Source: Nemertoderma westbladi | Taxonomy: Eukaryota; Animalia; Xenacoelomorpha | Length of the DNA: 64,000 nucleotides | NCBI GenBank assembly: GCA_032718475.1 | Contig: JAUCBJ010009120.1 | Location: 1 to 64,000 of the forward strand | Reading direction: 5' to 3' | Shown here: positions 14,901-63,665 of the stretch, piece after piece | Layout of the letters: the number at the start of each line of letters is the position of its first letter | Position numbering within the stretch: position 1 is the first letter of the stretch | Program-made: the position numbers and the translations under genes | Notes under the pieces: generated by a model | What the model was told of the DNA's origin: nothing | The model's input: only the letters and a program-made list of their open reading frames with translations | The model's database searches: none

Positions 14901-17900
14901 TCAAGGGACAGGTCACGTATAACTTTTTCAAACTTATTCAAACTATCATTTTTACAACTTATTTGAATATTTGTCTATTTCAGACCCAACCTCCCACCAT
15001 CCCTACTCTATAATATTATGAAACCCTGACTGATAGGAAAATTAAATAAATTAGTGTCGAACGTAAATAAAGTAATGAATTTCCTAGAAAGTTTCTTGTC
15101 GGCCACTATTATTTCCATAACCGATTTTAGTGTATGGGTCGTCAAGACGACATGGGTCGTCTTATTTACATTTGTTCACTTTAATCCGCAGGCGATGGCC
15201 AATATCGACCATGCGGAACACTCCGAAGTAGAAGTACATAGTGAGGAGGAACCAGATAACCACATGGATGTTATCTGGAAAGGTTGTCTGGCCTTATTAG
15301 GTGAGTGAGTAGGGGCGGCCTTGTTAGGTGAGTGAGTAGGGGCGGCCTTGGAAGTGTGAGTGAGTAGGGACGGCCTTGTTAGGTGAGTGAGTCGGGGCGG
15401 CCTTGTTAGGTGAGTGAGTAGGGGCGGCCTTGTTAGGTGGTGTGAGTGAGTAGGGACGGCCTTGTTAGGTGAGTGAGTAGGGGCGGCCTTGTTAGGAGGT
15501 GTGAGTGAGTAGGGCCGGCCTTGTTATGTGGTGTGAGTGAGTAGGGGAGGCCTTGTTAGGTGAGTGAGTAGGGACGGCTTGTTAGGTGGTGTGAATGAGT
15601 AGGGACGGCCTTGTTAGGTGAGTGAGTAGGGACGGCCTTGTTAGGTGAGTGAGTAGGGACGGCCTTGTTATGTGGTGTGAGTGAGTAGGGGAGGCCTTGT
15701 TAGGTGAGTGAGTAGGGACGGCTTGTTAGGTGGTGTGAATGAGTAGGGACGGCCTTGTTAGGTGAGTGAGTAGGGACGGCCTTGTTATGTGGTGTGAGTG
15801 AGTAGGGGCGGCCTTGTTAGGTGAGTGAGTAGGGGCGGCCTTGTTAGGTGAGTGAGTAGGGACGGCTTGTTAGGTGGTGTGAATGAGTAGGGACGGCCTT
15901 GTTAGGTGAGTGAGTAGGGCCGGCCTTGTTATGTGGTGTGAGTGAGTAGGGGCGGCCTTGTTAGGTGAGTGAGTAGGGACGGCCTTGTTAGGTGAGTGAG
16001 TAGGGGCGGCCTTGTTAGGTGAGTGAGTAGGGACGGCCTTGTTAGGTGGTGTGAATGAGTAGGGACGGCCTTGTTAGGTGAGTGAGTAGGGACGGCCTTG
16101 TTAGGTGAGTGAGTAGGGCCGGCCTTGTTATGTGGTGTGAGTGAGTAGGGGAGGCCTTGTTAGGTGAGTGAGTAGGGACGGCTTGTTAGGTGGTGTGAAT
16201 GAGTAGGGACGGCCTTGTTAGGTGAGTGAGTAGGGGCGGCCTTGTTAGGAGGTGTGAGTGAGTAGGGGCGGCCTTGTTAGGTGAGTGAGTAGGGGCGGCC
16301 TTAGGTGAGTGAGTAGGGACGGCCTTGTTAGGTGGTGTGAGTGAGTAGGGACGGCCTTGTTAGGTGAGTGAGTCGGGGCGGCCTTGTTAGGTGAGTGAGT
16401 AGGGACGGCCTTGTTAGGTGGTGTGAATGAGTAGGGACGGCCTTGTTAGGTGAGTGAGTAGGGGCGGCCTTGTTAGGTGAGTGAGTAGGGGCGGCCTTGT
16501 TAGGTGAGTGAGTAGGGGCGGCCTTGTTAGGTGAGTGAGTAGGGACGGCCTTGTTAGGTGGTGTGAATGAGTAGGGACGGCCTTGTTAGGTGGTGTGAAT
16601 GAGTAGGGACGGCCTTGTTAGGTGAGTGAGTAGGGACGGCCTTGTTAGGTGAGTGAGTAGGGGGCGGCCTTGTTAGGTGAGTGAGTAGGGGCGGCCTTGT
16701 TAGGTGAGTGAGTAGGGACGGCCTTGTTAGGTGAGTGAGTAGGGACGGCCTTGTTAGGTGAGTGAGTAGGGCCGGCCTTGTTATGTGGTGTGAGTGAGTA
16801 GGGGAGGCCTTGTTAGGTGAGTGAGTAGGGACGGCTTGTTAGGTGGTGTGAATGAGTAGGGACGGCCTTGTTAGGTGAGTGAGTAGGGGCGGCCTTGTTA
16901 GGTGAGTGAGTAGGGACGGCCTTGTTAGGTGAGTGAGTAGGGGCGGCCTTGTTAGGTGAGTGAGTAGGGGCGGCCTTGTTAGGTGAGTGAGTAGGGACGG
17001 CTTGTTAGGTGGTGTGAATGAGTAGGGACGGCCTTGTTAGGTGAGTGAGTAGGGGCGGCCTTGTTAGGTGAGTGAGTAGGGGCGGCCTTGTTAGGTGAGT
17101 GAGTAGGGGCGGCCTTGTTAGGTGAGTGAGTAGGGGCGGCCTTGTTAGGTGAGTGAGTAGGGACGGCCTTGTTAGGTGGTGTGAATGAGTAGGGACGGCC
17201 TTGTTAGGTGAGTGAGTAGGGACGGCCTTGTTAGGTGAGTGAGTAGGGCCGGCCTTGTTATGTGGTGTGAGTGAGTAGGGGGGGCCTTGTTAGGTGAGTG
17301 AGTAGGGATGGCTTGTTAGGTGGTGTGAATGAGTAGGGACGGCCTTGTTAGGTGAGTGAGTAGGGGCGGCCTTGTTAGGTGAGTGAGTAGGGACGGCCTT
17401 GTTAGGTGGTGTGAGTGAGTAGGGACTGCCTTGTTAGGTGAGTGAGTAGGGCCGGCCTTGTTATGTGGTGTGAGTGAGTAGGGGAGGCCTTGTTAGGTGA
17501 GTGGGTAGGGACGGCTTGTTAGGTGGTGTGAATGAGTAGGGACGGCCTTGTTAGGTGAGTGAGTAGGGGCGGCCTTGTTAGGTGAGTGAGTAGGGACGGC
17601 CTTGTTAGGTGGTGTGAATGAGTAGGGACGGCCTTGTTAGGTGAGTGAGTAGGGACGGCCTTGTTAGGTGAGTGAGTAGGGCCGGCCTTGTTATGTGGTG
17701 TGAGTGAGTAGGGGAGGCCTTGTTAGGTGAGTGAGTAGGGATGGCCTTGTTAGGTGGTGTGAATGAGTAGGGACGGCCTTGTTAGGTGAGTGGGTAGGGA
17801 CGGCCTTGTTAGGTGAGTGAGTCGGGGCGGCCTTGTTAGGAGGTGTGAGTGAGTCGGGGCGGCCTTGTTAGGTGAGTGAGTAGGGACGGCCTTGTTAGGT

Positions 17901-20900
17901 GAGTGAGTAGGGGCGGCCTTGTTAGGAGGTGTGAGTGAGTAGGGGCGGCCTTAGGTGAGTGAGTAGGGACGGCCTTGTTAGGAGGTGTGAGTGAGTAGGG
18001 ACGCCTTGTTAGGTGAGTGAGTAGGGACGGCCTTGTTAGGTGGTGTGAATGAGTAGGGACGGCCTTGTTAGGAGGTGTGAGTGAGTAGGGGCGGCCTTAG
18101 GTGAGTGAGTAGGGACGGCCTTGTTAAGTGGTGTGAGTGAATAGGGGCGGCCTTGTTAGGTGAGTGAGTAGGGACGGCCTTGTTAGGTAAGTTAGTAGGG
18201 GCGGCCTTGTTAGGTGAGTGAGTAGGGACGGCCTTGTTTGGTGAGTGAGTAAGGACGGCCTTGTTATGTGGTGTGAGTGAGTAGGGACGGCCTTGTTAGG
18301 TGAGTGAGTAGGGGCGGCCTTGTTAGGTGAGTGAGTATAGGGACGGCCTTGTTAGGTGAGTGAGTAGGGGCGGCCTTGTTAGGAGGTGTGAGTGAGTAGG
18401 GACGACGGCCTTGTTAGGAGGTGTGAGTGAGTAAGGACGGCCTTGTTAGGTGAGTGAGTAGGGACGCCCTTGTTAGGTGAGTGAGTAGGGGCGGCCTTAT
18501 TAGGTGAGTGAGTAGGGGGCGGCCTTGTTAGGTGAGTGAGTAGGGGCTGCCTTGTTAGGTGAGTGAGTAGGGGCTGCCTTGTTAGGAGGTGTGAGTGAGT
18601 AGGGACGGCCTTGTTAGGTGGTGTGAATGAGTAGGGACGGCCTTGTTAGGTGAGTGAGTAGGGGCTGCCTTGTTAGGTGAGTGAGTAGGGACGGCCTTGT
18701 TAGGTGAGTGAGTAGGGGCTGCCTTGTTAGGTGAGTGAGTAGGGGCTGCCTTGTTAGGTGAGTGAGTAGGGGGCGGCCTTGTTAGGTGAGTGAGTAGGGG
18801 CTGCCTTGTTAGGTGAGTGAGTAGGGGCTGCCTTGTTAGGAGGTGTGAGTGAGTAGGGACGGCCTTGTTAGGTGAGTGAGTAGGGGCGGCCTTATTAGGT
18901 GAGTGAGTCGGGGGCGGCCTTGTTAGGTGAGTGAGTAGGGGCTGCCTTGTTAGGTGAGTGAGTAGGGGCTGCCTTGTTAGGAGGTGTGAGTGAGTAGGGA
19001 CGGCCTTGTTAGGTGGTGTGAATGAGTAGGGACGGCCTTGTTAGGTGAGTGAGTAGGGACGGCCTTGTTAGGTGAGTGAGTAGGGCCGGCCTTGTTATGT
19101 GGTGTGAGTGAGTAGGGGAGGCCTTGTTAGGTGAGTGAGTAGGGACGGCTTGTTAGGTGGTGTGAATGAGTAGGGACGGCCTTGTTAGGTGAGTGAGTAG
19201 GGGCCGCCTTGTTAGGAGGTGTGAGTGAGTAGGGGCGGCCTTGTTAGGTGAGTGAGTAGGGGCGGCCTTAGGTGAGTGAGTAGGGACGGCCTTGTTAGGT
19301 GGTGTGAGTGAGTAGGGACGGCCTTGTTAGGTGAGTGAGTCGGGGCGGCCTTGTTAGGTGAGTGAGTAGGGACGGCCTTGTTAGGTGGTGTGAATGAGTA
19401 GGGACGGCCTTGTTAGGTGAGTGAGTAGGGGCGGCCTTGTTAGGTGAGTGAGTAGGGGCGGCCTTGTTAGGTGAGTGAGTAGGGGCGGCCTTGTTAGGTG
19501 AGTGAGTAGGGCCGGCCTTGTTAGGTGAGTGAGTAGGGACGGCCTTGTTAGGTGGTGTGAATGAGTAGGGACGGCCTTGTTAGGTGGTGTGAATGAGTAG
19601 GGACGGCCTTGTTAGGTGAGTGAGTAGGGCCGGCCTTGTTATGTGGTGTGAGTGAGTAGGGGAGGCCTTGTTAGGTGAGTGAGTAGGGACGGCTTGTTAG
19701 GTGGTGTGAATGAGTAGGGACGGCCTTGTTAGGTGAGTGAGTAGGGGCGGCCTTGTTAGGAGGTGTGAGTGAGTAGGGGCGGCCTTGTTAGGTGAGTGAG
19801 TAGGGGCGGCCTTAGGTGAGTGAGTAGGGACGGCCTTGTTAGGTGGTGTGAGTGAGTAGGGACGGCCTTGTTAGGTGAGTGAGTCGGGGCGGCCTTGTTA
19901 GGTGAGTGAGTAGGGACGGCCTTGTTAGGTGGTGTGAATGAGTAGGGACGGCCTTGTTAGGTGAGTGAGTAGGGGCGGCCTTAGGTGAGTGAGTAGGGAC
20001 GGCCTTGTTAGGTGGTGTGAGTGAGTAGGGACGGCCTTGTTAGGTGAGTGAGTCGGGGCGGCCTTGTTAGGTGAGTGAGTAGGGACGGCCTTGTTAGGTG
20101 GTGTGAATGAGTAGGGACGGCCTTGTTAGGTGAGTGAGTAGGGGCGGCCTTGTTAGGTGAGTGAGTAGGGGCGGCCTTGTTAGGTGAGTGAGTAGGGACG
20201 GCCTTGTTAGGTGGTGTGAATGAGTAGGGACGGCCTTGTTAGGTGGTGTGAATGAGTAGGGACGGCCTTGTTAGGTGAATGAGTAGGGGCGGCCTTGTTA
20301 GGTGAGTGAGTAGGGACGGCCTTGTTAGGTGAGTGAGTAGGGACGGCCTTGTTAGGTGAGTGAGTAGGGCCGGCCTTGTTAGGTGGTGTGATTGAGTAGG
20401 GACGGCCTTGTTAGGTGGTGTGAATGAGTAGGGACGGCCTTGTTAGGTGAGTGAGTAGGGGCGGCCTTGTTAGGTGAGTGAGTAGGGGCGGCCTTGTTAG
20501 GTGAGTGAGTAGGGACGGCCTTGTTAGGTGGTGTGAATGAGTAGGGACGGCCTTGTTAGGTGGTGTGAATGAGTAGGGACGGCCTTGTTAGGTGAGTGAG
20601 TAGGGACGGCCTTGTTAGGTGAGTGAGTAGGGGCTGCCTTGTTAGGTGAGTGAGTAGGGGCGGCCTTGTTAGGTGAGTGAGTAGGGACGGCCTTGTTAGG
20701 TGAATGACTAGGGGCGGCCTTGTTAGGTGAGTGAGTAGTGACGGCCTTGTTAGGTGAGTGAGTAGGGACGGCCTTGTTAGGTGAATGAGTAGGGACGGCC
20801 TTGTTAGGTGAGTGAGTAGGGACGGCCTTGTTAGGTGAGTGAGTAGGGACGGCCTTGTTAGGTGAGTGAGTAGGGCCGGCCTTGTTAGGTGAGTGAGTAG

Positions 20901-23900
20901 GGGCGGCCTTGTTAGTTGAGTGAGTAGGGGCGGCCTTGTTAGGTGAGTGAGTAGGGACGGCCTTGTTAGGTGGTGTGAATGAGTAGGGACGGCCTTGTTA
21001 TGTGGTGTGAGTGAGTAGGGACGGCCTTGTTAGGTGAGTGAGTAGGGACGGCCTTGTTAGGTGAGTGAGTAGGGACGGCCTTGTTAGGTGAGTGAGTAGG
21101 GACGGCCTTGTTAGGTGAGTGAGTAGGGCCGGCCTTGTTATGTGGTGTGAGTGAGTAGGGGAGGCCTTGTTAGGTGAGTGAGTAGGGACGGCTTGTTAGG
21201 TGGTGTGAATGAGTAGGGACGGCCTTGTTAGGTGAGTGAGTAGGGGCGGCCTTGTTATGTGGTGTGAGTGAGTAGGGACGGCCTTGTTATGTGGTGTGAG
21301 TGAGTAGGGACGGCCTTGTTAGGTGGTGTGAATGAGTAGGGACGGCCTTGTTAGGTGAGTGAGTAGGGGCGGCCTTGTTAGGTGAGTGAGTAGGGGCGGC
21401 CTTGTTAGGTGAGTGAGTAGGGACGGCCTTGTTAGGTGGTGTGAATGAGTAGGGACGGCCTTGTTAGGTGGTGTGAATGAGTAGGGACGGCCTTGTTAGG
21501 TGAGTGAGTAGGGACGGCCTTGTTAGGTGAGTGAGTAGGGGCTGCCTTGTTAGGTGAGTGAGTAGGGGCGGCCTTGTTAGGTGAGTGAGTAGGGACGGCC
21601 TTGTTAGGTGAATGACTAGGGGCGGCCTTGTTAGGTGAGTGAGTAGGGACGGCCTTGTTAGGTGAGTGAGTAGGGACGGCCTTGTTAGGTGAATGAGTAG
21701 GGACGGCCTTGTTAGGTGAGTGAGTAGGGACGGCCTTGTTAGGTGAGTGAGTAGGGACGGCCTTGTTAGGTGAGTGAGTAGGGCCGGCCTTGTTAGGTGA
21801 GTGAGTAGGGGCGGCCTTGTTAGGTGAGTGAGTAGGGACGGCCTTGTTAGGTGAGTGAGTAGGGCCGGCCTTGTTAGGTGAGTGAGTAGGGGCGGCCTTG
21901 TTAGTTGAGTGAGTAGGGGCGGCCTTGTTAGGTGAGTGAGTAGGGACGGCCTTGTTAGGTGGTGTGAATGAGTAGGGACGGCCTTGTTAGGTGGTGTGAA
22001 TGAGTAGGGACGGCCTTGTTAGGTGAGTGAGTAGGGGCGGCCTTGTTAGGTGAGTGAGTAGGGGCGGCCTTGTTAGGTGAGTGAGTAGGGACGGCCTTGT
22101 TAGGTGGTGTGAATGAGTAGGGACGGCCTTGTTAGGTGGTGTGAATGAGTAGGGACGGCCTTGTTAGGTGAGTGAGTAGGGACGGCCTTGTTAGGTGAGT
22201 GAGTAGGGGCTGCCTTGTTAGGTGAGTGAGTAGGGGCGGCCTTGTTAGGTGAGTGAGTAGGGACGGCCTTGTTAGGTGAATGAGTAGGGGCGGCCTTGTT
22301 AGGTGAGTGAGTAGGGACGGCCTTGTTAGGTGAGTGAGTAGGGACGGCCTTGTTAGGTGAATGAGTAGGGACGGCCTTGTTAGGTGAGTGAGTAGGGACG
22401 GCCTTGTTAGGTGAGTGAGTAGGGACGGCCTTGTTAGGTGAGTGAGTAGGGCCGGCCTTGTTAGGTGAGTGAGTAGGGGCGGCCTTGTTAGTTGAGTGAG
22501 TAGGGGCGGCCTTGTTAGGTGAGTGAGTAGGGACGGCCTTGTTAGGTGGTGTGAATGAGTAGGGACGGCCTTGTTATGTGGTGTGAGTGAGTAGGGACGG
22601 CCTTGTTAGGTGAGTGAGTAGGGACGGCCTTGTTAGGTGAGTGAGTAGGGACGGCCTTGTTAGGTGAGTGAGTAGGGACGGCCTTGTTAGGTGAGTGAGT
22701 AGGGCCGGCCTTGTTATGTGGTGTGAGTGAGTAGGGGAGGCCTTGTTAGGTGAGTGAGTAGGGACGGCTTGTTAGGTGGTGTGAATGAGTAGGGACGGCC
22801 TTGTTAGGTGAGTGAGTAGGGGCGGCCTTGTTATGTGGTGTGAGTGAGTAGGGACGGCCTTGTTATGTGGTGTGAGTGAGTAGGGACGGCCTTGTTATGT
22901 GGTGTGAGTGAGTAGGGACGGCCTTGTTATGTGGTGTGAGTGAGTAGGGACGGCCTTGTTATGTGGTGTGAGTGAGTAGGGACGGCCTTGTTATGTGGTG
23001 TGAGTGAGTACGGACGGCCTTGTTATGTGGTGTGAGTGAGTAGGGACGGCCTTGTTATGTGGTGTGAGTGAGTAGGGACGGCCTTGTTATGTGGTGTGAG
23101 TGAGTAGGGACGGCCTTGTTATGTGGTGTGAGTGAGTAGGGACGGCCTTGTTATGTGGTGTGAGTGAGTAGGGACGGCCTTGTTATGTGGTGTGAGTGAG
23201 TAGGGACGGCCTTGTTATGTGGTGTGAGTGAGTAGGGACGGCCTTGTTATGTGGTGTGAGTGAGTAGGGACGGCCTTGTTATGTGGTGTGAGTGAGTAGG
23301 GACGGCCTTGTTATGTGGTGTGAGTGAGTAGGGACGGCCTTGTTATGTGGTGTGAGTGAGTAGGGACGGCCTTGTTATGTGGTGTGAGTGAGTAGGGACG
23401 GCCTTGTTATGTGGTGTGAGTGAGTAGGGACGGCCTTGTTAGGTGAGTGAGTAGGGGCTGCCTTGTTAGGTGAGTGAGTAGGGGCGGCCTTGTTAGGTGA
23501 GTGAGTAGGGGGCGGCCTTGTTAGGTGAGTGAGTAGGGGCTGCCTTGTTAGGTGAGTGAGTAGGGGCTGCCTTGTTAGGAGGTGTGAGTGAGTAGGGACG
23601 GCCTTGTTAGGTGAGTGAGTAGGGGCGGCCTTATTAGGTGAGTGAGTCGGGGGCGGCCTTGTTAGGTGAGTGAGTAGGGGCTGCCTTGTTAGGTGAGTGA
23701 GTAGGGGCTGCCTTGTTAGGAGGTGTGAGTGAGTAGGGACGGCCTTGTTAGGTGGTGTGAATGAGTAGGGACGGCCTTGTTAGGTGAGTGAGTAGGGACG
23801 GCCTTGTTAGGTGAGTGAGTAGGGCCGGCCTTGTTATGTGGTGTGAGTGAGTAGGGGAGGCCTTGTTAGGTGAGTGAGTAGGGACGGCTTGTTAGGTGGT

Positions 23901-35900: not shown

Positions 35901-38900
35901 TAGGGGCGGCCTTGTTAGGAGGTGTGAGTGAGTAGGGACGACGGCCTTGTTAGGAGGTGTGAGTGAGTAAGGACGGCCTTGTTAGGTGAGTGAGTAGGGA
36001 CGCCCTTGTTAGGTGAGTGAGTAGGGGCGGCCTTATTAGGTGAGTGAGTAGGGGGCGGCCTTGTTAGGTGAGTGAGTAGGGGCTGCCTTGTTAGGTGAGT
36101 GAGTAGGGGCTGCCTTGTTAGGAGGTGTGAGTGAGTAGGGACGGCCTTGTTAGGTGGTGTGAATGAGTAGGGACGGCCTTGTTAGGTGAGTGAGTAGGGG
36201 CTGCCTTGTTAGGTGAGTGAGTAGGGGCGGCCTTATTAGGTGAGTGAGTAGGGGGCGGCCTTGTTAGGTGAGTGAGTAGGGGCTGCCTTGTTAGGAGGTG
36301 TGAGTGAGTAGGGACGGCCTTGTTAGGTGGTGTGAATGAGTAGGGACGGCCTTGTTAGGTGAGTGAGTAGGGGCTGCCTTGTTAGGAGGTGTGAGTGAGT
36401 AGGGACGGCCTTGTTAGGAGGTGTGAATGAGTAGGGACGGCCTTGTTATGTGGTGTGAGTGAGTAGGGACGGCCTTGTTAGGTGAATGAGTAGGGACGGC
36501 CTTGTTAGGTGAGTGAGTCGGGGCGGCCTTGTTAGGTGAGTGAGTAGGGACGGCCTTGTTAGGTGAGTGAGTCGGGGCGGCTTTGTTAGGTGAGTGAGTC
36601 GGGGGCCTTTTTCTTATGGTAGTATGGTAGTATGAGTCATTATGGTAGTATAGTAATGCTCGAAAGCATTGGATGTACGGTAATATAATTTGAGCCAAAA
36701 TTCAACCAAATTCAACGCATTTCAATGAATATGTTTCGCCTTTGATCTTTTTGACCATTTTCGGCCATTTCGAAACATTTTGGCCATGCGCGATGTTTTA
36801 GTTATGCACGTTAAAAGCAAATTTCACTCAAATTTACTCTGCTGAGACATTAAAATGAGTAATTCAATTTTAATTCATAATTAAATTGTCAATTCAGTTT
36901 TATAGCATTACTCTTGTGTATTTCCCTGCTACTTTTAGGAATATTTTCATTTATGCTCGTCGAGAAAGTTATTGATTTCGTGAGTCTCTCGCGTGTTAAG
37001 TCGAGAGCCATAAAGCGGCAAAAAAAGGCGGAATTGGATTTATTGTCGATGGAAACGATGCGTTCTGTTATTGGTTAGTATTTATATGAGTCTTATTTAT
37101 TGGTATTGAGTTGCGTTGCATTGGGTGGGTGTAAAACGCGAATACGGATCCAGATACAGGATCCGGATACGGATCAGGACCCGGATTTGCGAGTGTTAAA
37201 AGCGGATCCGGATTTACATACATTCCGTAACTGAGTGTAATATGCGGTTTCTGAAATACGCAATCCGTATTGCAGTGTAAAACGCGGATTCATATATTTT
37301 GTGAATCCGGAATGGAGTGTAAAATACGGATTTACGTTAATTACCAAATTTTAATGGATCCGGAATGGAGTGTAAAACACGGATTTTCGTTAATTATCAA
37401 GTTTTGTTGGATCCGGGATGGAGTGTAAAACGCGGATTAAAGTTAATTACAAAGTGCTTCTGCATCCGGGAAGGGGTGTAAAACGCGGATTCAAGTTAAT
37501 TACAAAGTGATTCCGCATCCGGGAAGGGGTGTAAAACGCGGATTCAAGTTAATTACAAGGTGTTATTGGATCCGGGAAGGGGTGTAAAGCACGGATTGAA
37601 GTTAATTACAAAGTGCTTCTGCATCCGGGAAGGGGTGTAAAACGCGGATTCAAGTTAATTACAAGGTGTTACTGGATCCGGGAAGGGGTGTAAAGCGCGG
37701 ATTCTAGTTAATTACAAAGTTTTATTGGATCCGGGAAGGGGTGTAAAACGCGGATTCATGTTAATTTCCAAGTTTTATTGGATCCGGGAAGGGGTGTAAA
37801 ACTCGGATTCAAGTTAATTACAACGTGTTACTGGATCCGGGAACGGGTGTAAAACGCGGATTCAAGTTAATTACAAAGGGTTTCTGCATCCGGGAAGGGG
37901 TGTAAAACGCGGATTCAAGTTAATTACCAAGTTTTATTGGATCTGGGAAGGGGTGTAAAACGCGGATTCATGTTAATTACCAAGTGTTACTGGATCCGGG
38001 AAGGGGTGTAAAACGCGGATTCATGTTAATTACCAAGTGTTACTGGATCCGGGAAGGGGTGTAAAACGCGGATTCAAGTTAATTACCAAGTTTTATTGGA
38101 TCCGGGAAGGGGTGTAAAACGCGGATTCAAGTTAATTACCAAGTTTTATTGGATCCGGGAAGGGGTGTAAAACGCGGATTCAAGTTAATTACTAAGTTTT
38201 ATTGGATCCGGGAAGGGGTGTAAAACGCGGATTCAAGTTAATTACAAGGTGTTACTGGATCCGGGAAGGGGTGTAAAACGCGGATTCAAGTTAATTACCA
38301 AGTTTTATTGGATCCGGGTAGGGGTGTAAAACGCGGATTCAAGTTAATTACCAAGTTTTATTGGATCCGGGAAGGGGTGTAAAACGCGGATTCAAGTTAA
38401 TTACAAGGTGTTACTGGATCCGGGAAGGGGTGTAAAACGCGGATTCAAGTTAATTACAAAGTGTTTCTGCATCCGGGTAGGGGTGTAAAACGCGGATTCA
38501 AGTTAATTACCAAGTTTTATTGGATCCGGGAAGGGGTGTAAAACGCGGATTCAAGTTAATTAGCAAGTTTTATTCGATCCGGGAAGGGGTGTAAAACGGG
38601 GATTCAAGTTAATTACCAAGTTTTATTGGATCCGGGAAGAGGTGTAAAACGCGGATTCAAGTTAATTACAAAGTGTTTCGGGATCCGGGAAGGGGTGTAA
38701 AGCACGGATTCAAGTTAATTACCAAATTTTATTGGATCCGAGAAGGGGTGTAAAACGCGGATTCAAGTTAATTACAAAGTGTTTCTGGATCCGGGAAGCG
38801 GTGTAAAGCACGGATTCATGTTAATTACCAAGTTTTATTGGATCCGAGAAGGGGTGTAAAACGCGGATTCAAGTTAATTACCAAGTTTTATTGGATCCGA

Positions 38901-41900
38901 GAAGGGGTGTAAAACGCGGATTCAAATTAATTACCAAGTTTTATTGGATCCGGGAAGAGGTGTAAAACGCGGATTCAAGTTAATTACAAAGTGTTTCGGG
39001 ATCCGGGAAGGGGTGTAAAACGCGGATTCAAGTTAATTACCAAGTTTTATTGGATCCGAGAAGGGGTGTAAAACGCGGATTCAAGTTAATTACCAAGTTT
39101 TATTGGATCCGGGAAGAGGTGTAAAACGCGGATTCAAGTTAATTACAAAGTGTTTCGGGATCCGGGAAGGGGTGTAAAGCACTGATTCAAGTTAATTACT
39201 CGGGATCCGGGAAGGGGTGTAAAGCACGGATTCAAGTTAATTACCAAGTTTTATTGGATCCGATAAGGGGTGTAAAACGCGGATTCTGTCGGATTTCTGG
39301 TGTAAACCGTGATTCACGTTTAACTTGAATCCGCGTTTTACACTCCCTCCCGTATCCATTAATACTTTGTAATAAACTTGAATCCGTATTTTACACCCAA
39401 TCCCGAATTCACTAGAAATATGAATCCGCGTTTTACACTCAGTTCAAGATTTAGGCTAAAACATGAATCCGCGATTTACACTCCGTTCCGGATCTGAAAA
39501 AAGGCCAATCCGCGTTTTACACTCATTTACGGATTCGGTAAATTTAGCAGTGCTCGGATCCGCAGATTACACCCTAAAAATGTAAATTCAGTCGACTTTC
39601 ATAGAGACAATGTTAAATGATAGAATCCGGATCCTGATCTGAATCCGCGTTTTACTCTGACCCCGTTGCATTTTGTGTAAGTCCTCTCTGCCTAATTTTA
39701 TAGCTTATTTTATTATTATTTCAACTGTCGGTTTTTACCGTTTAACGATTCAAATACGATTATACGGAAACTGAAACAAAGTTATTATTTGATGGGTTGT
39801 TTTTATATGTAGGTAACAAGTTGGTGAGTCATCAGAACTACGACAATGACTGTATATACAGTAAAGTTCCGTCTACTGGGTTTCTAATGCGGGAACTATC
39901 CAGCAATGCGACAGAAGTTGACTCAATTGTTACTGACACAGACAGTCTTTACAGCAAAAGGTGAGATAACTTTATCTACTCCCGTTTGCAGCGGGTAAGG
40001 ATCTATTACTACCGTTGTAATGATCTGTCATTTGATATTCGTTATCAACTATCTTACCATTTCTATATCACTAGCAACTCAATTATTACGGGACACATCT
40101 CGAAACCAAATGTTCCACTCTTGCCGCAATCTGGACACGGCCATTCCTCATCCCATGGCCACAGTCACGGTACCGGTCACAGTCACGGCGGTGCTGGAGG
40201 CGACATGAAGAAGCAGTCCTTCTCCAGCGTCGCTTGGATGGTGATTCTGGGCGACGGATTCCACAACTTTATAGATGGAATGGTAATCGGGGCCGCCTTC
40301 GCAGGGGGTCTATCCGACGGAGTATCTACATCCGTCGCCGTATTCTGTCACGAGCTTCCTCACGAGTTAGGTGAGTCATTGAGCTTCCTCACGAGTTAGG
40401 TGAGTCATTGAGCTTCCTCACGAGTTAGGTGAGTCAATGAGCTTCCTCACGAGTTAGGTGAGTCATTGAGCTTCCTCACGAGTTAGGTGAGTCATTGAGC
40501 TTCCTCACGAATTAGGTGAGTCATTGAGCTTCCTCACGAGTTAGGTAAGTCAATGAGCTTCATCATGAGTTAGGTGAGTCAATGAGCTTCCTCACGAGTT
40601 AGGTGAGTCATTGAGCTTCCTCACGAGTTAGGTAAGTCAATGAGCTTCATCATGAGTTAGGTGAGTCAATGAGCTTCCTCACGAGTTAGGTGAGTCCATG
40701 AGCTTCCTTACGAGTTAGGTAAGTCAATGAGCTTCATCTTGAGTTAGTGAGTCAATGAGCTTCCTCACGAGTTAGGTGAGTCAATGAGCTTCGTCACGAG
40801 TTAGGTGAGTCATTGAGCTTCCTCACGAGTTAGGTAAGTCAATGAGCTTCATCATGAGTTAGGTGAGTCAATGAGCTTCCTCACGAGTTAGGTGAGTCAT
40901 TGAGCTTCCTCACGAGTTAGGTAAGTCAATGAGCTTCATCATGAGTTAGGTGAGTCAATGAGCTTCCTCACGAGTTAGGTGAGTCCATGAGCTTCCTTAC
41001 GAGTTAGGTAAGTCAATGAGCTTCATCTTGAGTTAGTGAGTCAATGAGCTTCCTCACGAGTTAGGTGAGTCAATGAGCTTCGTCACGAGTTAGGTGAGTC
41101 AATGAGCTTCCTCACGAGTTAGGTGATTCATTGAGCTTCCTCACGAGTTAGGTAAGTCAATGAGCTTCATCATGAGTTAGGTGAGTCAATGAGCTTCCTC
41201 ACGAGTTAGGTGAGTCATTGAGCTTCCTCACGAGTTAGGTGAGTCATTGAGCTTCCTCACGAGTTAGGTGAGTCATTGAGCTTCCTCACGAGTTAGGTGA
41301 GTCATTGAGCTTCCTCACGAGTTAGGTGAGTCATTGAGCTTCCTTACGAGTTAGGTGAGTCATTGAGCTTCCTCACGAGTTAGGTAAGTCAATGAGCTTC
41401 ATCATGAGTTAGGTGAGTCAATGAGCTTCCTCACGAGTTAGGTGAGTCCATGAGCTTCCTTACGAGTTAGGTAAGTCAATGAGCTTCATCTTGAGTTAGT
41501 GAGTCAATGAGCTTCCTCACGAGTTAGGTGACTCAATGAGCTTCGTCACGAGTTAGGTGAGTCAATGAGCTTCCTCACGAGTTAGGTGAGTCAATGAACT
41601 TCCTCACGAGTTAGGTGAGTCCATAAGCTTCCTCACGAGTTAGGTAAGTCAATGAGCTTCATCATGAGTTGGGTGAGTCAGTGAGCTTCCTCGTTAGTTA
41701 GGTGAGTCATTGAGCTTCCATACGAGTTGGGTGAGTCAGTGAGCTTCCTCGTTAGTTAGGTGAGTCATTGAGCTTCCTCACGAGTTGGGTGAGTCAGTGA
41801 GCTTCCTCGTTAGTTAGGTGAGTCATTGAGCTTCCATACGAGTTGGGTGAGTCAGTGAGCTTCCTCGTGAGTTAGGTGAGTCATTGAGCTTCCTTATGAG

Positions 41901-56900: not shown

Positions 56901-59900
56901 ACGAGTTAGGTGAGTCCATGAGGTTCCTCACGAGTTAGCTGAGTCCATAAGCTTCCTCACGAGTTAGGTGAGTCCACGAGCTTCCTCACGAGTTAGGTGA
57001 GTCAATGAGCTTCATCATGAGTTAGGTGAGACCATGAGCTTCCTCACGAGTTGGGTGAGTCCATGAGCGTCTTCACGAGTTAGGTGAGTCCATGAGCTTC
57101 CTCACGAGTTAGGTGAGTTATTGAGTTTCCTCGTGAGTTAGGTGAGTCATTGAGTTTCCTCACGAGTTAGGTGAGTCATTGAGCTTCCTCGTGAGTTAGG
57201 TGAGTCCATGAGCTTCCTCACGAGTTAGGTGAGTCCATGAGGTTCCTCACGAGTTAGCTGAGTCCATAAGCTTCCTCACGAGTTAGGTGAGTCATTGAGC
57301 TTCCTCGTGAGTTAGGTGAGTCAGTGAGCTTCCTCGCGAGTTAGGTGAGTCAATGAGTTTCCTCACGAGTTAGGTGAGTCCATGAGCTTCCTCACGAGTT
57401 AGGTGAGTCCATGAGGTTCCTCACGAGTTAGCTGAGTCCATAAGCTTCCTCACGAGTTAGGTGAGTCCACGAGCTTCCTCACGAGTTAGGTGAGTCCATG
57501 AGTTTCCTCACGAGTTAGGTGAGTCCATGAGTTTCCTCACAAGTTAGATGAGTCCATGAGCTTCCTCACGAGTTAGGTGAGTTCGTGAGCTTCCTCACTA
57601 GTTAGGTGAGTCCATGAGCTTCCTCACGAGTTAGGTGAGTCCATGAGCTTCCTCACGAGTTAGGTGAGTCCATGAGCTTTATCGCGAGTTAGGCGAGTCC
57701 ATGAGCTTCCTCATGAGTTGGGTGAGTCAGTGAGCTTCCTCGTGAGTTAGGTGAGTCATGGATCTTCCTCGTGAGTTAGGTGAGTCCATGAGCTTCCTCA
57801 CGAGTTAGGTGAGTCCATGAGCTTCCTCACGAGTTAGGTGAGTCCATGAGTTCCCTCACAAGTTAGGTGAGTCAATGAGCTTCCTCACGAGTTAGGTGAG
57901 TCCATGAGCTTCCTCACGAGTTAGGTGAGTCAATGAGCTTCCTCACGAGTTAGGTGAGTCCATGAGCTTCCTCACGAGTTAGGTGAGTCCATGAGGTTCC
58001 TCACGAGTTAGCTGAGTCCATAAGCTTCCTCACGAGTTAGGTGAGTCCACGAGCTTCCTCACGAGTTAGGTGAGTCAATGAGCTTCATCATGAATTAGGT
58101 GAGACCATGAGCTTCCTCACGAGTTGGGTGAGTCCATGAGCGTCTTCACGAGTTAGGTGAGTCCATGAGCTTCCTCACGAGTTAGGTGAGTTATTGAGTT
58201 TCCTCGTGAGTTAGGTGAGTCATTGAGTTTCCTCACGCGTTAGGTGAGTCATTGAGCTTCCTCGTGAGTTAGGTGAGTCCATGAGCTTCCTCACGAGTTA
58301 GGTGAGTCCATGAGGTTCCTCACGAGTTAGCTGAGTCCATAAGCTTCCTCACGAGTTAGGTGAGTCATTGAGCTTCCTCGTGAGTTAGGTGAGTCAGTGA
58401 GCTTCCTCGCGAGTTAGGTGAGTCAATGAGCTTCCTCACGAATTAGGTGAGTCCATGAGCTTCCTCACGAGTTAGGTGAGTCCATGAGGTTCCTCACGAG
58501 TTAGCTGAGTCCATAAGCTTCCTCACGAGTTAGGTGAGTCCACGAGCTTCCTCACGAGTTAGGTGAGTCTATGAGTTTCCTCACGAGTTAGGTGAGTCCA
58601 TGAGTTTCCTCACAAGTTAGATGAGTCCATGAGCTTCCTCACGAGTTAGGTGAGTTCGTGAGCTTCCTCACTAGTTAGGTGAGTCCATGAGCTTCCTCAC
58701 GAGTTAGGTGAGTCCATGAGCTTCCTCACGAGTTAGGTGAGTCCATGAGCTTTATCGCGAGTTAGGCGAGTCCATGAGCTTCCTCATGAGTTGGGTGAGT
58801 CAGTGAGCTTCCTCGTGAGTTAGGTGAGTCATGGATCTTCCTCGTGAGTTAGGTGAGTCCATGAGCTTCCTCACGAGTTAGGTGAGTCCATGAGCTTCCT
58901 CACGAGTTAGGTGAGTCCATGAGTTCCCTCACAAGTTAGGTGAGTCAATGAGCTTCCTCACGAGTTAGGTGAGTCCATGAGCTTCCTCACGAGTTAGGTG
59001 AGTCCATGAGGTTCCTCACGAGTTAGGTGAGTCCACGAGCTTCCTCACGAGTTAGGTGAGTCAATGAGGTTCATCATGAGTTAGGTGAGACCATGAGCTT
59101 CCTCACGAGTTGGGTGAGTCCATGAGCGTCTTCACGAGTTAGGTGAGTCCATGAGCTTCCTCACGAGTTAGGTGAGTTATTGAGTTTCCTCGTGAGTTAG
59201 GTGAGTCATTGAGCTTCCTCGTGAGTTAGGTGAGTCCATGAGCTTCATCATGAGTTAGGTGAGTCCATGAGCTTCCTCACGAGTTAGGTGAGTCATTGAG
59301 CTTCCTCGTGAGTTAGGTGAGTCAGTGAGCTTCCTCGCGAGTTAGGTGAGTCAATGAGCTTCCTCACGAGTTAGGTGAGTCCATGAGCTTCCTCACGAGT
59401 TAGGTGAGTCCATGAGGTTCCTCACGAGTTAGCTGAGTCCATAAGCTTCCTCACGAGTTAGGTGAGTCCACGAGCTTCCTCACGAGTTAGGTGAGTCCAT
59501 GAGTTTCCTCACGAGTTAGGTGAGTCCATGAGTTTCCTCACAAGTTAGATGAGTCCATGAGCTTCCTCACGAGTTAGGTGAGTTCGTGAGCTTCCTCACT
59601 AGTTAGGTGAGTCCATGAGCTTCCTCACGAGTTAGGTGAGTCCATGAGCTTCCTCACGAGTTAGGTGAGTCCATGAGCTTTATCGCGAGTTAGGCGAGTC
59701 CATGAGCTTCCTTATGAGTTGGGTGAGTCAGTGAGCTTCCTCGTGAGTTAGGTGAGTCATGGATCTTCCTCGTGAGTTAGGTGAGTCCATGAGCTTCCTC
59801 ACGAGTTATGTGAGTCCATGAGCTTCCTCACGAGTTAGGTGAGTCCATGAGTTCCCTCACAAGTTAGGTGAGTCAATGAGCTTCCTCACGAGTTAGGTGA

Positions 59901-62900
59901 GTCCATGAGCTTCCTCACGAGTTAGGTGAGTCCATGAGGTTCCTCACGAGTTAGGTGAGTCCACGAGCTTCCTCACGAGTTAGGTGAGTCAATGAGCTTC
60001 ATCATGAGTTAGGTGAGACCATGAGCTTCCTCACGAGTTGGGTGAGTCCATGAGCGTCTTCACGAGTTAGGTGAGTCCATGAGCTTCCTCACGAGTTAGG
60101 TGAGTTATTGAGTTTCCTCGTGAGTTAGGTGAGTCATTGAGCTTCCTCGTGAGTTAGGTGAGTCCATGAGCTTCATCATGAGTTAGGTGAGTCCATGAGC
60201 TTCCTCACGAGTTAGGTGAGTCAGTGAGCTTCCTCACGAGTTAGGTGAGTCAATGAGCTTCCTCACGAGTTAGGTGAGTCAATGAGCTTCCTCACGAGTT
60301 AGGTGAGTCCATGAGCTTCCTCACGAGTTAGGTGAGTCCATGAGGTTCCTCACGAGTTAGCTGAGTCCATAAGCTTCCTCACGAGTTAGGTGAGTCCACG
60401 AGCTTCCTCACGAGTTAGGTGAGTCCATGAGTTTCCTCACGAGTTAGGTGAGTCCATGAGTTTCCTCACAAGTTAGGTGAGTCAATGAGCTTCCTCACGA
60501 GTTAGGTGAGTCCATGAGCTTCCTCACGAGTTAGGTGTGTCCACGAGCTTCCTCACGAGTTAGGTGAGTCCATGAGCTTCCCCACGAGTTAGGTGAGTCC
60601 ATGAGTTCCCTCACAAGTTAGGTGAGTCAATGAGCTTCCTCACGAGTTAGGTGAGTCCATGAGCTTCCTCACGAGTTAGGTGAGTCCATGAGTTCCCTCA
60701 CAAGTTAGGTGAGTCAATGAGCTTCCTCACGAGTTAGGTGAGTCCATGAGCTTCCTCACGAGTTAGGTGAGTCCATGAGGTTCCTCACGAGTTAGCTGAG
60801 TCCATAAGCTTCCTCACGAGTTAGGTGAGTCCACGAGCTTCCTCACGAGTTAGGTGAGTCAATGAGCNNNNNNNNNNNNNNNNNNNNNNNNNNNNNNNNN
60901 NNNNNNNNNNNNNNNNNNNNNNNNNNNNNNNNNNNNNNNNNNNNNNNNNNNNNNNNNNNNNNNNNNNCACGAGTTAGGTGAGCCAATGAGCTTCCTCACG
61001 AGTTAGGTAAGTCAATGAGCTTCATCATGAGATAGGTGAATCAATGAGCTTCCCCACGAGTTAGGTGAGCCAATGAGCTTCCTCACGAGTTAGGTGAGTC
61101 AATGAGCTTTCTCACGAGTTAGGTGAGTCAATGAGCTTCCTCACGATTTAGGTGAGTCCATGAGCATCTTTACGATGTAGGTGAGTCAATGACCTTCCTC
61201 ACGTGTTAGGTGAGTCAATGAGCTTCGTCACGAGTTAGGTGAGTCAGTGAGCTTCATCATGAGTTAGGTGAGACCATGAGCTTCCTCACGAGTTGGGTGA
61301 GTCCATGAGCGTCTTCACGAGTTAGGTGAGTCCATGAGCTTCCTCACGAGTTAGGTGAGTCCATGAGCTTCCTCGCGAGTTAGCTGAGTCAATGAGCTTC
61401 CTCACGAGTTAGGTGAGTCCATGAGCTTCCTCACGAAGGTGAGTCCATGAGGTTCCTCCGAGTTAGTTGAATCCATGAGCTTCCTCATGAGTTAGGTGAG
61501 TCCATGAGCTTCCTCACGAGTTAGGTGAGTCAATGAGCTTCATCATGAGTTAGGTGAGACCATGAGCTTCCTCACGAGTTGGGTGAGTCCATGAGCGTCT
61601 TCACGAGTTAGGTGAGTCCATGAGCTTCCTCACGAGTTAGGTGAGTTATTGAGTTTCCTCGTGAGTTAGGTGAGTCATTGAGCTTCCTCGTGAGTTAGGT
61701 GAGTCCATGAGCTTCCTCGCGAGTTGGGTGAGTCAGTGAGCTTCCTCACGAGATGGGTGAGTCAGTGAGCCTCCTCGCTAGTTAGGTGAGTCAATGAGCT
61801 TCCTCACGAGTTAGGTGAGTCCATGAGCTTCCTCACGAGTTAGGTGAGTCCATGAGGTTCCTCACGAGTTAGCTGAGTCCATAAGCTTCCTCACGAGTTA
61901 GGTGAGTCCACGAGCTTCCTCACGAGTTAGGTGAGTCCATGAGTTTCCTCACGAGTTAGGTGAGTCCATGAGTTTCCTCACAAGTTAGGAGAGTCCATGA
62001 GCTTCCTCACGAGTTAGGTGAGTTCGTGAGCTTCCTCACTAGTTAGGTGAGTCCATGAGCTTCCTCACCAGTTAGGTGAGTCCATGAGCTTCCTCACGAG
62101 TTAGGTGAGTCCATGAGCTTCCTCGCGAGTTAGGTGTGTCCATGAGCTTCCTCATGAGTTGGGTGAGTCAGTGAGCTTCCTCGTGAGTTAGGTGAGTCAT
62201 GGATCTTCCTCGTGAGTTAGGTGAGTCATTGAGTTTCCTCGCGGGTTGGGTGAGTCATTGAGTTTCCTCGCGGGTTAGGTGAGTCAGTGAGCTCCCTCGT
62301 GAGTTAGGTGAGTCAATAAGCTTCCTCACGAGTTAGGTGAGTCAGTGAACTTCCTCGTTAGTTAGGTGAGTCATGGATCTTCCTCACGAGTTGAGTGAGT
62401 CATTGAGTTTCCTCGCGGGTTGGGTGAGTCATTGAGTTTCCTCGCGGGTTGGGTGAGTCATTGAGTTTCCTCGCGGGTTGGGTGAGTCATTGAGTTTCCT
62501 CGCGGGTTGGGTGAGTCATTCAGTTTCCTCGCGGGTTGGGTGAGTCAGTGAGCTTCATCGTGAGTTAGGTGAGTCAGTGAGCTTCCTCACGAGTTAGGTG
62601 AGTCATTGAGTTTCCTCGCGGGTTGGGTGAGTCATTGAGTTTCCTCGCGGGTTGGGTGAGTCATTGAGTTTCCTCGCGGGTTGGGTGAGTCATTGAGTTT
62701 ACTCGCGGGTTGGGTGAGTCATTGAGTTTCCTCGCGGGTTGGGTGAGTCATTGAGTTTCCTCGCGGGTTGGGTGAGTCATTGAGTTTACTCGCGGGTTGG
62801 GTGAGTCATTGAGTTTCCTCGCGGGTTGGGTGAGTCATTGAGTTTCCTCGCGGGTTAGGTGAGTCAGTGAGCTCCCTCGTGAGTTAGGTGAGTCATTGAG

Positions 62901-63665
62901 TTTCCTCGCGGGTTGGGTGAGTCATTGAGTTTCCTCGCGGGTTGGGTGAGTCATTGAGCTTCCTCACGAGTTGAGTGAGTCATTGAGTTTCCTCGCGGGT
63001 TGGGTGAGTCATTGAGTCTCCTCGCGGGTTGGGTGAGTCATTGAGTTTCCTCGCGGGTTGGGTGAGTCATTGAGTTTCCTCGGGGATTAATCTGCTCCAC
63101 TATGAATTACGTGAGCCAGGGATATTCTTATAAGCATAAGCGATTATATTACAGTAATGCGTGAAGCTATTTTGAGCGACTGTTTATTTGATTTTACTTT
63201 TTCCCCCAGGCGACTTTGCTGTACTGTTAAGCAGCGGTATGTCGGCCCGACAAGCGCTGGTTTACGCCGGTCTCTCTTCCTTTCTCAGCTACGTAGGATT
63301 GGTGATTGGGCTTCTAACCGGAGCAATTTCCGGGTCCACACTCTACATATTCGCACTGGCCGGTGGTTTATTTCTATATATCGCCTTGGTTGATATGGTA
63401 AGTTTAGTGTTTGTTACTCTGTTAGGTTTCTCCTTGGTTGTCTAAAACTCCGCGGTTACAATGTCGGTTACAATGTCGGTTACAATATTTTAATGTTCCT
63501 TCGTAGATTCCCCACATGCAGTCCACTGCTCTGTCTGACCAACGAGAACACAACAGCAGTATGGGTGCCTTACTAATCGCCCAGGCTACCGGGTTGCTTT
63601 CCGGTCTAGCCATTATGGTTCTCATAGCAACGTTCGAGGATGACCTCAGCTTTGACCTCGAATAG
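2781..63665 (+). CDS. SLC39A10-like: Multi-exon LIV-1 subfamily ZIP zinc transporter (ZIP6/ZIP10/fear-of-intimacy-like), 5'-partial; 11 exons, 646 aa visible
   Basis: join(2781..2901,9569..9830,12950..13070,14186..14417,14712..14881,15192..15300,36939..37073,39813..39960,40075..40370,63210..63397,63507..63665) = 1941 nt, open frame, all introns GT-AG, phases 1,2,0,1,0,1,1,2,1,0. Family motifs: CPTLLFQID (CPALLYQ-type), LAIGTLSGDALLHLIPH, His-rich loop GHGHSSSHGHSHG, ILGDGFHNFIDG, CHELPHELGDFAVLL, GLFLYIALVDM. Exact paralogue is inferred. Start codon and signal peptide not found in the window. Confidence 0.93.
4114..4185 (-). mobile_element. tRNA-derived SINE head remnant
   Basis: Minus strand has A-box-like TGTTGGAGTGG and B-box GGTTCAAATCC; no intact cloverleaf. 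Another B-box (GGTTCGAATCC, minus strand) lies near 3144-3154. Confidence 0.4.
4455..4798 (+). repeat. Compound 12/13-bp minisatellite (CCATGTACCATCT / CCTGTATCATCT), often in a 37-bp trimer
   Basis: Visible periodicity; explains three overlapping low-complexity ORFs. Confidence 0.95.
6265..7663. mobile_element. Two inverted fragments of one repeat family (6265-6422 vs 7305-7459); right copy extends to about 7663
   Basis: About 155-bp diverged reverse-complement match (AATCCAAAATTGCAATCCCGATCCCGAAAAACGGGAT...); clusters of CGGGAT/ATCCCG motifs typical of subterminal repeats; no TSD found. Confidence 0.6.
9569..9830 (+). CDS. ZIP transporter ectodomain exon B (DSSDSAGVYN...HSVPKKHR)
   Basis: Acceptor ttatttag, donor AG|gtgagt; contains ORF 9640..9834 in the same frame; phases 1/2 fit neighbours. 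Confidence 0.72.
11026..11285 (+). repeat. 26-bp minisatellite, 10 copies
   Basis: (TTACTTTGGTGGCGTTGAGCACCGGG)x10 with few substitutions. Confidence 0.97.
12950..13070 (+). CDS. ZIP transporter ectodomain exon C (RAKKFRQRRRTDV...IKSATK)
   Basis: Acceptor aatctatag, donor AAG|gtgagt; phases 2/0 fit neighbours; joins to give K-CLTPE. Confidence 0.75.
13741..14047. mobile_element. MITE (about 307 bp), superfamily uncertain
   Basis: TIRs AAGGCCCGTTCACATCCAACGG / CCGTTGGATGTGAACGGGGCTT (one mismatch), flanked by TA on both sides; internal GC-rich palindromic motifs (CGGTACACCG, CGGTACCG). Confidence 0.78.
14186..14417 (+). CDS. ZIP exon D, PAL-motif region (CLTPEVLW...FQEVCPTLLFQID...)
   Basis: Acceptor acttttcag, donor A|gtaagt; CPxLLxQID motif of LIV-1 ZIPs. 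Confidence 0.92.
14712..14881 (+). CDS. ZIP exon E, TM1-TM2 (IWGFATLS...GDALLHLIPH)
   Basis: Acceptor tatttatag, donor CAC|gtgagt; conserved GTLSGDALLHLIPH. Confidence 0.95.
15192..15300 (+). CDS. ZIP exon F (AMANIDHAEH...VIWKGCLALLG); its last 11 nt are unit 1 of array 1
   Basis: Acceptor aatccgcag, donor TTAG|gtgagt; WKG motif at the start of TM3. Confidence 0.92.
15290..36609 (+). repeat. Array 1: about 21.3-kb satellite of the exon F/intron junction (27-bp unit, 32-bp variants)
   Basis: Unit GGCCTTGTTAG|GTGAGTGAGTAGGG(G/A/C)C; variants with 5-nt insertions (GTGGT, GAGGT). First unit overlaps the exon end GGCCTTATTAG. About 750 units by length/period. Confidence 0.99.
36939..37073 (+). 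CDS. ZIP exon G (GIFSFMLVEKVIDF...MRSVIG)
   Basis: Acceptor tttccctgctacttttag; completes TM3 as LLG-IFSFMLVEK; donor G|gttagt; phases 1/1. Not in the ORF track. Confidence 0.87.
37123..39663. mobile_element. Non-autonomous foldback/Mutator-like element (2541 bp)
   Basis: Perfect 9-bp TSD CGTTGCATT (37114-37122, 39664-39672); imperfect TIRs GGGTGGGTGTAAAACGCG / CGCGTTTTACTCTGACCC; modular GTGTAAAACGCGGATT repeats forward in the left arm and inverted in the right arm. Confidence 0.82.
37290..39290 (+). repeat. 53-bp tandem array (about 37 copies) inside the foldback-like element
   Basis: Unit GGATCCGGGAAGGGGTGTAAAACGCGGATTCAAGTTAATTACCAAGTTTTATT. Confidence 0.97.
39813..39960 (+). CDS. ZIP exon H, cytoplasmic loop (GNKLVSHQNY...DSLYSKS)
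   Basis: Acceptor ttttatatgtag, donor AG|gtgaga; phases 1/2 bridge exons G and I. Confidence 0.8.
40075..40370 (+). CDS. ZIP exon I, His-rich loop plus TM4-TM5 (...GDGFHNFIDG...CHELPHELG); last 19 nt are unit 1 of array 2
   Basis: Acceptor ttctatatcactag, donor TTAG|gtgagt; LIV-1 HExPHExGD signature split by the intron. Confidence 0.95.
40352..63082 (+). repeat. Array 2: about 22.7-kb satellite of the exon I/intron junction (29-bp unit)
   Basis: Unit GAGCTTCCTCACGAGTTAG|GTGAGTC(ATT/AAT/CAT/AGT); period 29 (40352, 40381...). About 780 units by length/period; contains an N gap. Confidence 0.99.
60868..60967. other. Assembly gap (100 N) inside array 2
   Basis: Run of exactly 100 N, usually a placeholder for unknown size. 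Confidence 0.99.
63210..63397 (+). CDS. ZIP exon J, TM5-TM7 (GDFAVLLSSG...LYIALVDM)
   Basis: Acceptor ttttactttttcccccag; restores HELG-DFAVLL; donor ATG|gtaagt. Confidence 0.95.
63453..63488 (+). repeat. 12-bp triplication (CGGTTACAATGT)x3 in the last intron
   Basis: Seen directly; third copy has one mismatch. Confidence 0.9.
63507..63665 (+). CDS. ZIP terminal exon K, TM8 (IPHMQS...GLLSGLAIMVLIATFEDDLSFDLE*)
   Basis: Acceptor gttccttcgtag; typical ZIP C-terminus; TAG at 63663-63665. Confidence 0.93.
   Translation: MPHMQSTALSDQREHNSSMGALLIAQATGLLSGLAIMVLIATFEDDLSFDLE

Follow-up and report, generated by a model that had tools for sequence, protein, structure and literature searches.

How can a gene remain intact when two of its introns are filled with copies of its own 5' splice junctions, and what allows such arrays to grow? 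This question is raised by a 64,000-nt stretch of the Nemertoderma westbladi genome (hereafter the window), in which a reading made from the sequence without database searches (hereafter the sequence-only reading) had described two ~22-kb arrays built from the 5' junctions of a ZIP transporter gene. Tandem Repeats Finder (TRF) and unit segmentation agreed on both arrays and placed them where that reading had. Below, we describe the gene and its arrays, weigh whether their size is real, compare them with known splice-junction repeats, and consider how splicing and selection could accommodate them.

Donor-junction arrays in a ZIP10/ZIP6-like transporter gene

We modeled the host gene on the forward strand, as are all exons and arrays given here, as eight exons spanning 14186–63665. 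The model contains 478 codons to a single terminal stop and all of its introns are GT..AG, which upholds the earlier description of a reading frame free of stops and frameshifts. Three of nine exon queries matched the Pfam Zip family (PF02535) and the HELPHE motif is present, identifying the product as a ZIP (SLC39) protein. Among the best 120 homologues the named proteins were nearly all ZIP10, plus ZIP6 and foi (animal), and identity to the best 15 was 35–40% over 460–511 aligned positions. The host is an intact, spliced ZIP10/ZIP6-like (SLC39) transporter gene. Three putative upstream exons (2781–2901, 9569–9830 and 12950–13070), placed by splice signals and frame continuity only, would bring the model to 646 codons, still without a located start codon.

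Two exons of the eight-exon model, 14186–14417 and 14712–14881, lie upstream of array 1 and have unamplified donors; both are placed by frame, and the second matches Pfam Zip (E = 1.9e-10). The open frame continues in coding exon 15192–15300, whose donor, TTAG/GTGAGT, is unit 1 of array 1, and resumes beyond the array in exon 36939–37073. Exon 39813–39960 follows, and then coding exon 40075–40370, which carries the His-rich loop and the ZIP core up to HELPHEL (Pfam Zip, E = 6.4e-17) and whose donor serves as unit 1 of array 2. The gene is completed by exon 63210–63397 (Pfam Zip, E = 3.3e-10) and by the last coding exon, 63507–63665, which the frame carries to the stop codon.

Array 1 (15290–36603) is gapless in the assembly. 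TRF assigned it a period of 27 with 742.9 copies and 88% matches, segmentation yielded 743 units, and the unit consists of the last 11 nt of exon 15192–15300 and the first 16 nt of the intron. For array 2 (40352–63081), TRF gave a period of 29 with 784.3 copies and 88% matches, and segmentation 780 units; here the unit combines the last 19 nt of exon 40075–40370, which code for ELPHEL-G, with the first 10 nt of the intron. This composition, with the real donor as unit 1, is the one that the sequence-only reading had proposed. Both arrays are splice-donor minisatellites of the 'mirage' or F7 type, in which the repeated unit straddles the end of an exon and the start of its intron and the authentic junction serves as unit 1: the units are short (27 and 29 nt), run head to tail, and in many cases retain an intact donor.

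As assembled, the introns holding arrays 1 and 2 are 21,638 and 22,839 nt long. The arithmetic behind these previously reported figures is right, but the second intron crosses a 100-N scaffold gap (60868–60967) that lies inside array 2 and through which the array was not assembled, so neither the length of array 2 nor that of its intron is a measured length. Unit positions confirmed that the last donor-like copy is 349 nt from the acceptor in array 1 and 148 nt in array 2. Together, the arrays add 44 kb of intron and account for 72% of the visible gene span.

The description of hundreds of near-identical donors holds for the exact copies of TAG/GTGAGT, which number 452 downstream of the real array-1 donor and 531 downstream of the real array-2 donor, but fails for 250 of the 743 array-1 units, which are 32 nt long and carry an insertion that disrupts the donor; 407 units of that array have the 27-nt length. 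By segmentation, AG/GTRAGT is present in 456 of 743 array-1 units and 590 of 780 array-2 units. Intact donors are spread evenly along array 1 (0.53–0.73 per tenth), and in array 2 their share is 0.74–0.81 in nine tenths and 0.54 in the last. Given this even spread and an intact unit 2 in either array, we see no sign that decoys near the exon have been purged.

Size, internal structure and origin of the arrays

Read depth bears on whether array 2 is as large as it appears. In X3, a DNA run that may be from the source sample, summed word depth was 21,129 on array-2 units versus 23.4 on unique flank, a ~900-fold difference. Under a rough correction this depth corresponds to ~630–1,260 units, a range to be read as an order of magnitude, as summed word depth is no copy number. 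X3 depth thus roughly backs hundreds of array-2 units. With ~22 kb per array as assembled, and depth pointing to tens of kilobases for array 2, the arrays fall short of the hundreds of kilobases to megabases of Drosophila Y introns.

Each array is built of nested duplications. Array 1 has exact internal repeats of up to 1.8 kb, at offsets of 3028, 3532, 4739 and 6560; in array 2 they extend to 2.0 kb, and a ~5-kb block recurs there at an offset of 9388 with 99–100% identity. Exact duplicates of at least 500 nt cover 71% of array 1 and 77% of array 2. The near-identical kilobase blocks suggest recent change in the arrays, and the nested duplicates fit recent unequal exchange, with assembly error able to account for part of them. 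Toward the 3' end of array 2 (~62400–63100), a diverged GG/GTGAGT unit type predominates, and behind it lies a partial unit that has decayed, a pattern expected at array edges that homogenization does not reach.

The same blocks raise the possibility that the assembler, by stacking haplotypes or repeating blocks, lengthened real arrays that have a much smaller size in vivo. Such inflation would account for the scaffold gap within array 2 and for blocks of 1.4–5 kb at 99–100% identity, and the depth support covers array 2 alone. However, the X3 estimate, although not a strict copy number, is of the assembled order for array 2, and the 60 distinct unit types of array 1 and the 111 found in array 2 ahead of the gap are arranged in nested, partly diverged blocks of a kind that no assembler would make up. 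We therefore regard inflation as improbable and the feature as real, two arrays of about 750 units each, with the depth figure applying to array 2 alone.

The exon-derived parts of the units encode ALL-G in array 1 and ELPHEL-G in array 2, and in alignments with ZIP10 homologues these residues are conserved. Because each unit reproduces the last coding bases of the exon that it borders, whose residues are conserved in ZIP10, the exons must have come first and the arrays arisen separately, in agreement with the earlier proposal of separate amplifications. For the same reason we rejected a common origin of the two arrays. The units had also been described as different in sequence; their periods do differ (27 versus 29), but they are not wholly unrelated, as both consensus units carry the 11-mer GTTAG/GTGAGT and both real donors share TTAG/GTGAGT. 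This shared core is for the most part donor consensus. AG/GTGAGT also occurs at two unamplified donors among the gene's ten, and just 2–3 further bases agree between the arrays.

TTAGG is a telomere-like motif, and we considered the core as a sequence trigger of amplification but rejected this idea as unsupported. A motif count found TTAGGG absent from both arrays, and canonical G-quadruplex motifs numbered 0 in either array. Growth may have begun with a slip of 27 or 29 nt over the exon/intron junction that duplicated the donor. Array 1 has a short GGCCTT repeat at either end, a possible seed, but as a general explanation microhomology seeding is weak for array 1 and unsupported for array 2, whose 3' edge resembles a decayed unit. 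Repeated unequal exchange or conversion would then have copied blocks of 1.4–9.4 kb to generate the higher-order structure seen in the arrays.

TRF found three further arrays longer than 200 bp in the window, none of them on donors, which indicates that this genome makes minisatellites readily. The third array (37305–39286; 53 bp × 37.5) fills most of the next intron after exon 36939–37073, and an inverted sequence related to it lies just downstream (~39310–39660). Because X3 depth at 39329–39367, within this relative, was ~97,000 versus 23, related sequence must form a high-copy family elsewhere in the genome, possibly derived from a transposon. A short element at 39602–39679 had a depth of ~12,000–15,000 in both X3 (DNA) and X4 (transcript-like) and is apparently a dispersed, transcribed repeat. 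Intronic minisatellites off splice sites lie at 11026–11286 (26 bp × 10, 97% matches) and 4450–4796 (25/37 bp, ~350 bp). By eye, 1203–2295 and 6350–7670, in or before the first visible introns, are elements with long inverted ends (~1.1 and 1.3 kb) resembling non-autonomous DNA transposons.

Known splice-junction repeats and donor arrays in other eukaryotes

Tandem duplications of exon/intron boundaries, named 'mirages', have been described in the lancelet (amphioxus) genes Adh3, BflGb6, BflGb9, troponin C and PGBD5, where they are reported as not disturbing splicing (PMC3087553, PMC3902484). As in the ZIP gene, these are head-to-tail repeats of a boundary-spanning unit in genes of an invertebrate, and PGBD5 is likewise doubly affected, with mirages at two of its donors. 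The lancelet arrays, however, are reported at 2–7 copies, in contrast to ~750 in each ZIP array, which exceeds 20 kb and contains kilobase higher-order blocks. Human examples include the 37-bp VNTR in intron 7 of F7 and the repeats of CBS intron 13, 6-16, LMNB2 and PDGF, with 5–25 copies (PMC1557585). These share with the ZIP arrays a true donor in the first unit and identical pseudo-donors after it, and the most upstream site is described as the only or main one used. Mutagenesis of F7, with at most nine sites tested, favors 5'-to-3' scanning to the first donor, whereas splicing of CBS and 6-16 also involves the closest pseudo-sites (PMC1557585).

The closest precedent in copy number is the 25-bp VNTR in intron 18 of human ABCA7, for which a range of 12–440 units and a largest allele of 10,678 bp (~427 units) have been reported (PMC5954066, PMC13747324). 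Like the ZIP arrays, it begins at an exon donor, reaches hundreds of copies, and yields a premature stop when a decoy is used; unlike them, its unit starts with the GT and so includes no exon sequence, and the gene has one such array of about half the ZIP array length. One-unit retention and exon skipping occur in ABCA7, and in population data long alleles alter splicing (PMC5954066, PMC13747324). Drosophila Y genes also remain intact with gigantic introns inflated mainly by tandem repeats, but these are of megabase scale, and the excerpted text of PMC6508621 does not describe an origin from the genes' own splice junctions.

The sequence-only reading had presented the arrays as nearly without precedent, which overstated their novelty: the class has a name, lancelet PGBD5 has two arrays in one gene, and ABCA7 reaches ~427–440 copies. 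The repeat class is already known, and what is new is the scale, with two ~750-unit arrays that occupy 72% of the visible gene and contain kilobase higher-order duplications. Our searches of the open-licence literature turned up neither a splice-junction array above ~440 copies nor a test for donor enrichment across a whole genome.

We also scanned metagenome contigs for three spaced AG/GTGAGT motifs. Two of the 64 parts of the collection yielded 122 loci, giving an estimate of ~3,900 such stretches overall, and 102 of the 122 were tandem at ≥75% identity. Among these, 80 had a period of at least 15 and at least 2.5 copies; 69 of the 80 had enough upstream flank, and in 43 of the 69 an open frame ran up to the first donor and ended there. 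Nine of these 43 upstream frames had a Pfam match at E ≤ 0.01 (six above the curated cut-off), each ending ≤4 residues from the donor, compared to 1 of 31 loci for downstream control frames (63 eligible; Fisher p = 0.04). The families include the myotubularin GRAM domain, the clathrin repeat, synoviolin and Calx-beta. The scan covers donors alone, in assemblies that do not reveal how large an array is. Its loci show that donor arrays arise widely in eukaryotes and, because they occur in unrelated eukaryotic contigs, that the starting event is not special to the Nemertoderma lineage. Small arrays starting at an apparent exon donor can be seen on contigs L020, L049, L062, L095, L097 and L104, and also on L001, L025 and L058. 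Of two runs representing other organisms, X6 yielded no matching piece and X7 two short, weak ones.

Splicing past the decoy donors and the growth of the arrays

To be tolerated, the arrays should leave the authentic junctions in use. A 5,240-nt contig of X4 (sample S3; depth 155) matches exons 39813–39960 and 40075–40370 without a difference and skips the 114-nt intron between them. Upstream, it runs into the end of exon 36939–37073, where its loose end coincides with the 3' end of that exon; downstream, 40370 is joined directly to 63210, the junction whose mapping had been proposed, and the other loose end lies in exon 63210–63397. We took X4, a run not listed as RNA, to be RNA because the contig skips a GT..AG intron, has an exon depth of 155 and is absent from unique intron parts; the DNA run X3 contains no such spliced joint. 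X4 yielded no contig on the array-2 units, to which we give no weight because contig data have holes. The first donor of array 2 is thus used in the X4 sample, as seen in one spliced contig from another sample, whose array may be of a different length. In alignments with 120 homologous proteins, this junction is gap-free in 114 of the 115 that span it. The array-1 junction, 15300^36939, is predicted solely from protein homology; it falls within a conserved segment, with a gap-free alignment in 90 of 108 spanning homologues.

In-frame stops at 15306 and 40397 precede the first decoys, at 15328 and 40400, in both arrays, so any decoy product would be a substrate for decay. As decoy use brings an in-frame stop into the mRNA, decay would also hide mis-splicing, and assembled contigs drop rare forms. 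Consequently, of the earlier idea that splicing reliably picks the first donor, first-donor use at array 2 in one X4 contig stands, but reliability is not borne out, since decay could mask decoy use. Masking of the decoys by RNA structure was not convincing (z of -1.88 and -0.64).

We propose that exon definition and 5'-to-3' scanning select the upstream donor, as observed for array 2 in one sample and as may hold for array 1. Use of any downstream donor would add an in-frame stop and send the error to nonsense-mediated decay, costing only some output. With the exon and its donor never damaged, selection against array growth would be weak. Neutral expansion to satellite size, tolerated because the first donor wins and mis-spliced RNA is destroyed, is in our judgment the probable explanation, and it is consistent with first-donor scanning in F7, with the lancelet mirages and with ABCA7. 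By analogy, the arrays may not be harmless, since long ABCA7 alleles alter splicing.

Neutrality leaves unexplained why both of the largest arrays in the window sit on donors. For two of five arrays to fall on ten donors has a nominal chance of ~0.004, a value weakened by the window having been picked for its arrays. One explanation would be that donor-bearing units are privileged for giant growth: U1 snRNP loaded on every unit would protect a long intron against premature cleavage, hnRNP A1-type proteins recruited by UAGG would mute the decoys, and a size of tens of kilobases could then be attained at less cost than by other repeats. Protection by U1 against premature cleavage is known as telescripting (PMC5499120), TAGGGA/T is an hnRNP A1 SELEX motif (PMC3794818), and a UAGG/GGGG silencing code has been described (PMC1079783). 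TAGG is present in 739 of 743 array-1 and 643 of 780 array-2 units, TAGGGA/T in 424 array-1 units, and the AATAAA counts of the arrays are 0 and 2; however, TAGG follows automatically from TAG/G, and the scarcity of AATAAA from a GC-rich unit. Similarly, the donor core of array 2 is less variable than the rest of the unit (5.4% versus 13.3% across 122 unit types, which are not independent; permutation p = 0.016) and ranks second lowest in variability among 29 windows, but in array 1 the difference is not significant (permutation p = 0.19) and the donor-broken units have spread freely. The donor at 9830 reads TAG/GTGAGT yet has no array, and TTAG preceded the donor in just 7 of the 102 tandem metagenome loci and in none of the nine with a Pfam match. 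Privileged growth of this kind is therefore unlikely, and we would give little credence to the broader claim that donor repeats are systematically favored to satellite size in this lineage, with U1-loaded units keeping the long intron transcribable and silent. If true, it would mean that many genes across the genome produce pre-mRNAs consisting mostly of decoy donors (~1,000 exact copies here) that are still spliced at the first.

The arrays could also form a regulatory device in which decoy use coupled to decay, or the transcription delay imposed by 44 kb, tunes zinc-transporter output. Every decoy does lead to a stop, the arrays take up most of the visible gene span, and in ABCA7 array length shifts isoform ratios, with one-unit retention known there. 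We consider regulation very unlikely, though, as we see no evidence of conservation, unit turnover looks drift-like, and the single X4 contig covering these exons is spliced from the first donor. More improbable still is that the AG/GT units act as recursive (ratchet) splice points through which the intron is removed stepwise. Ratchet points need a full 3' splice site. Each intact unit does have an AG directly before GTGAGT, and the array-2 unit contains a short pyrimidine-rich stretch, CTTCCTCAC, that ends 7 nt before the donor-proximal AG. However, other AGs lie just upstream within each unit, and ahead of the first decoy AG pyrimidines make up a fraction of 0.39 in array 1 and 0.56 in array 2, compared to 0.56–0.83 in ten real acceptors, such that array 1 lacks an acceptor-like polypyrimidine tract and array 2 is at the bottom of the real range.

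If carriers of long alleles splice this gene accurately, then first-donor choice holds against ~450–530 identical competitors per intron. The F7 experiments involved roughly fifty-fold fewer sites, and such splicing would put scanning and first-come models of donor selection to a natural test. The ~780 copies of ELPHEL-coding DNA beside a working exon also provide a setting in which to measure conversion between repeat and coding sequence. At array 1, the real donor has TTATTAG and the array consensus TTGTTAG, a difference that is synonymous (Leu) in the exon. The exon form is found in 6 of 743 units, unit 1 and five internal ones at window positions 18493, 18888, 23627, 36029 and 36229. The difference could stem from sequence exchange of the exon with its array or from a subsequent change in one of the two.
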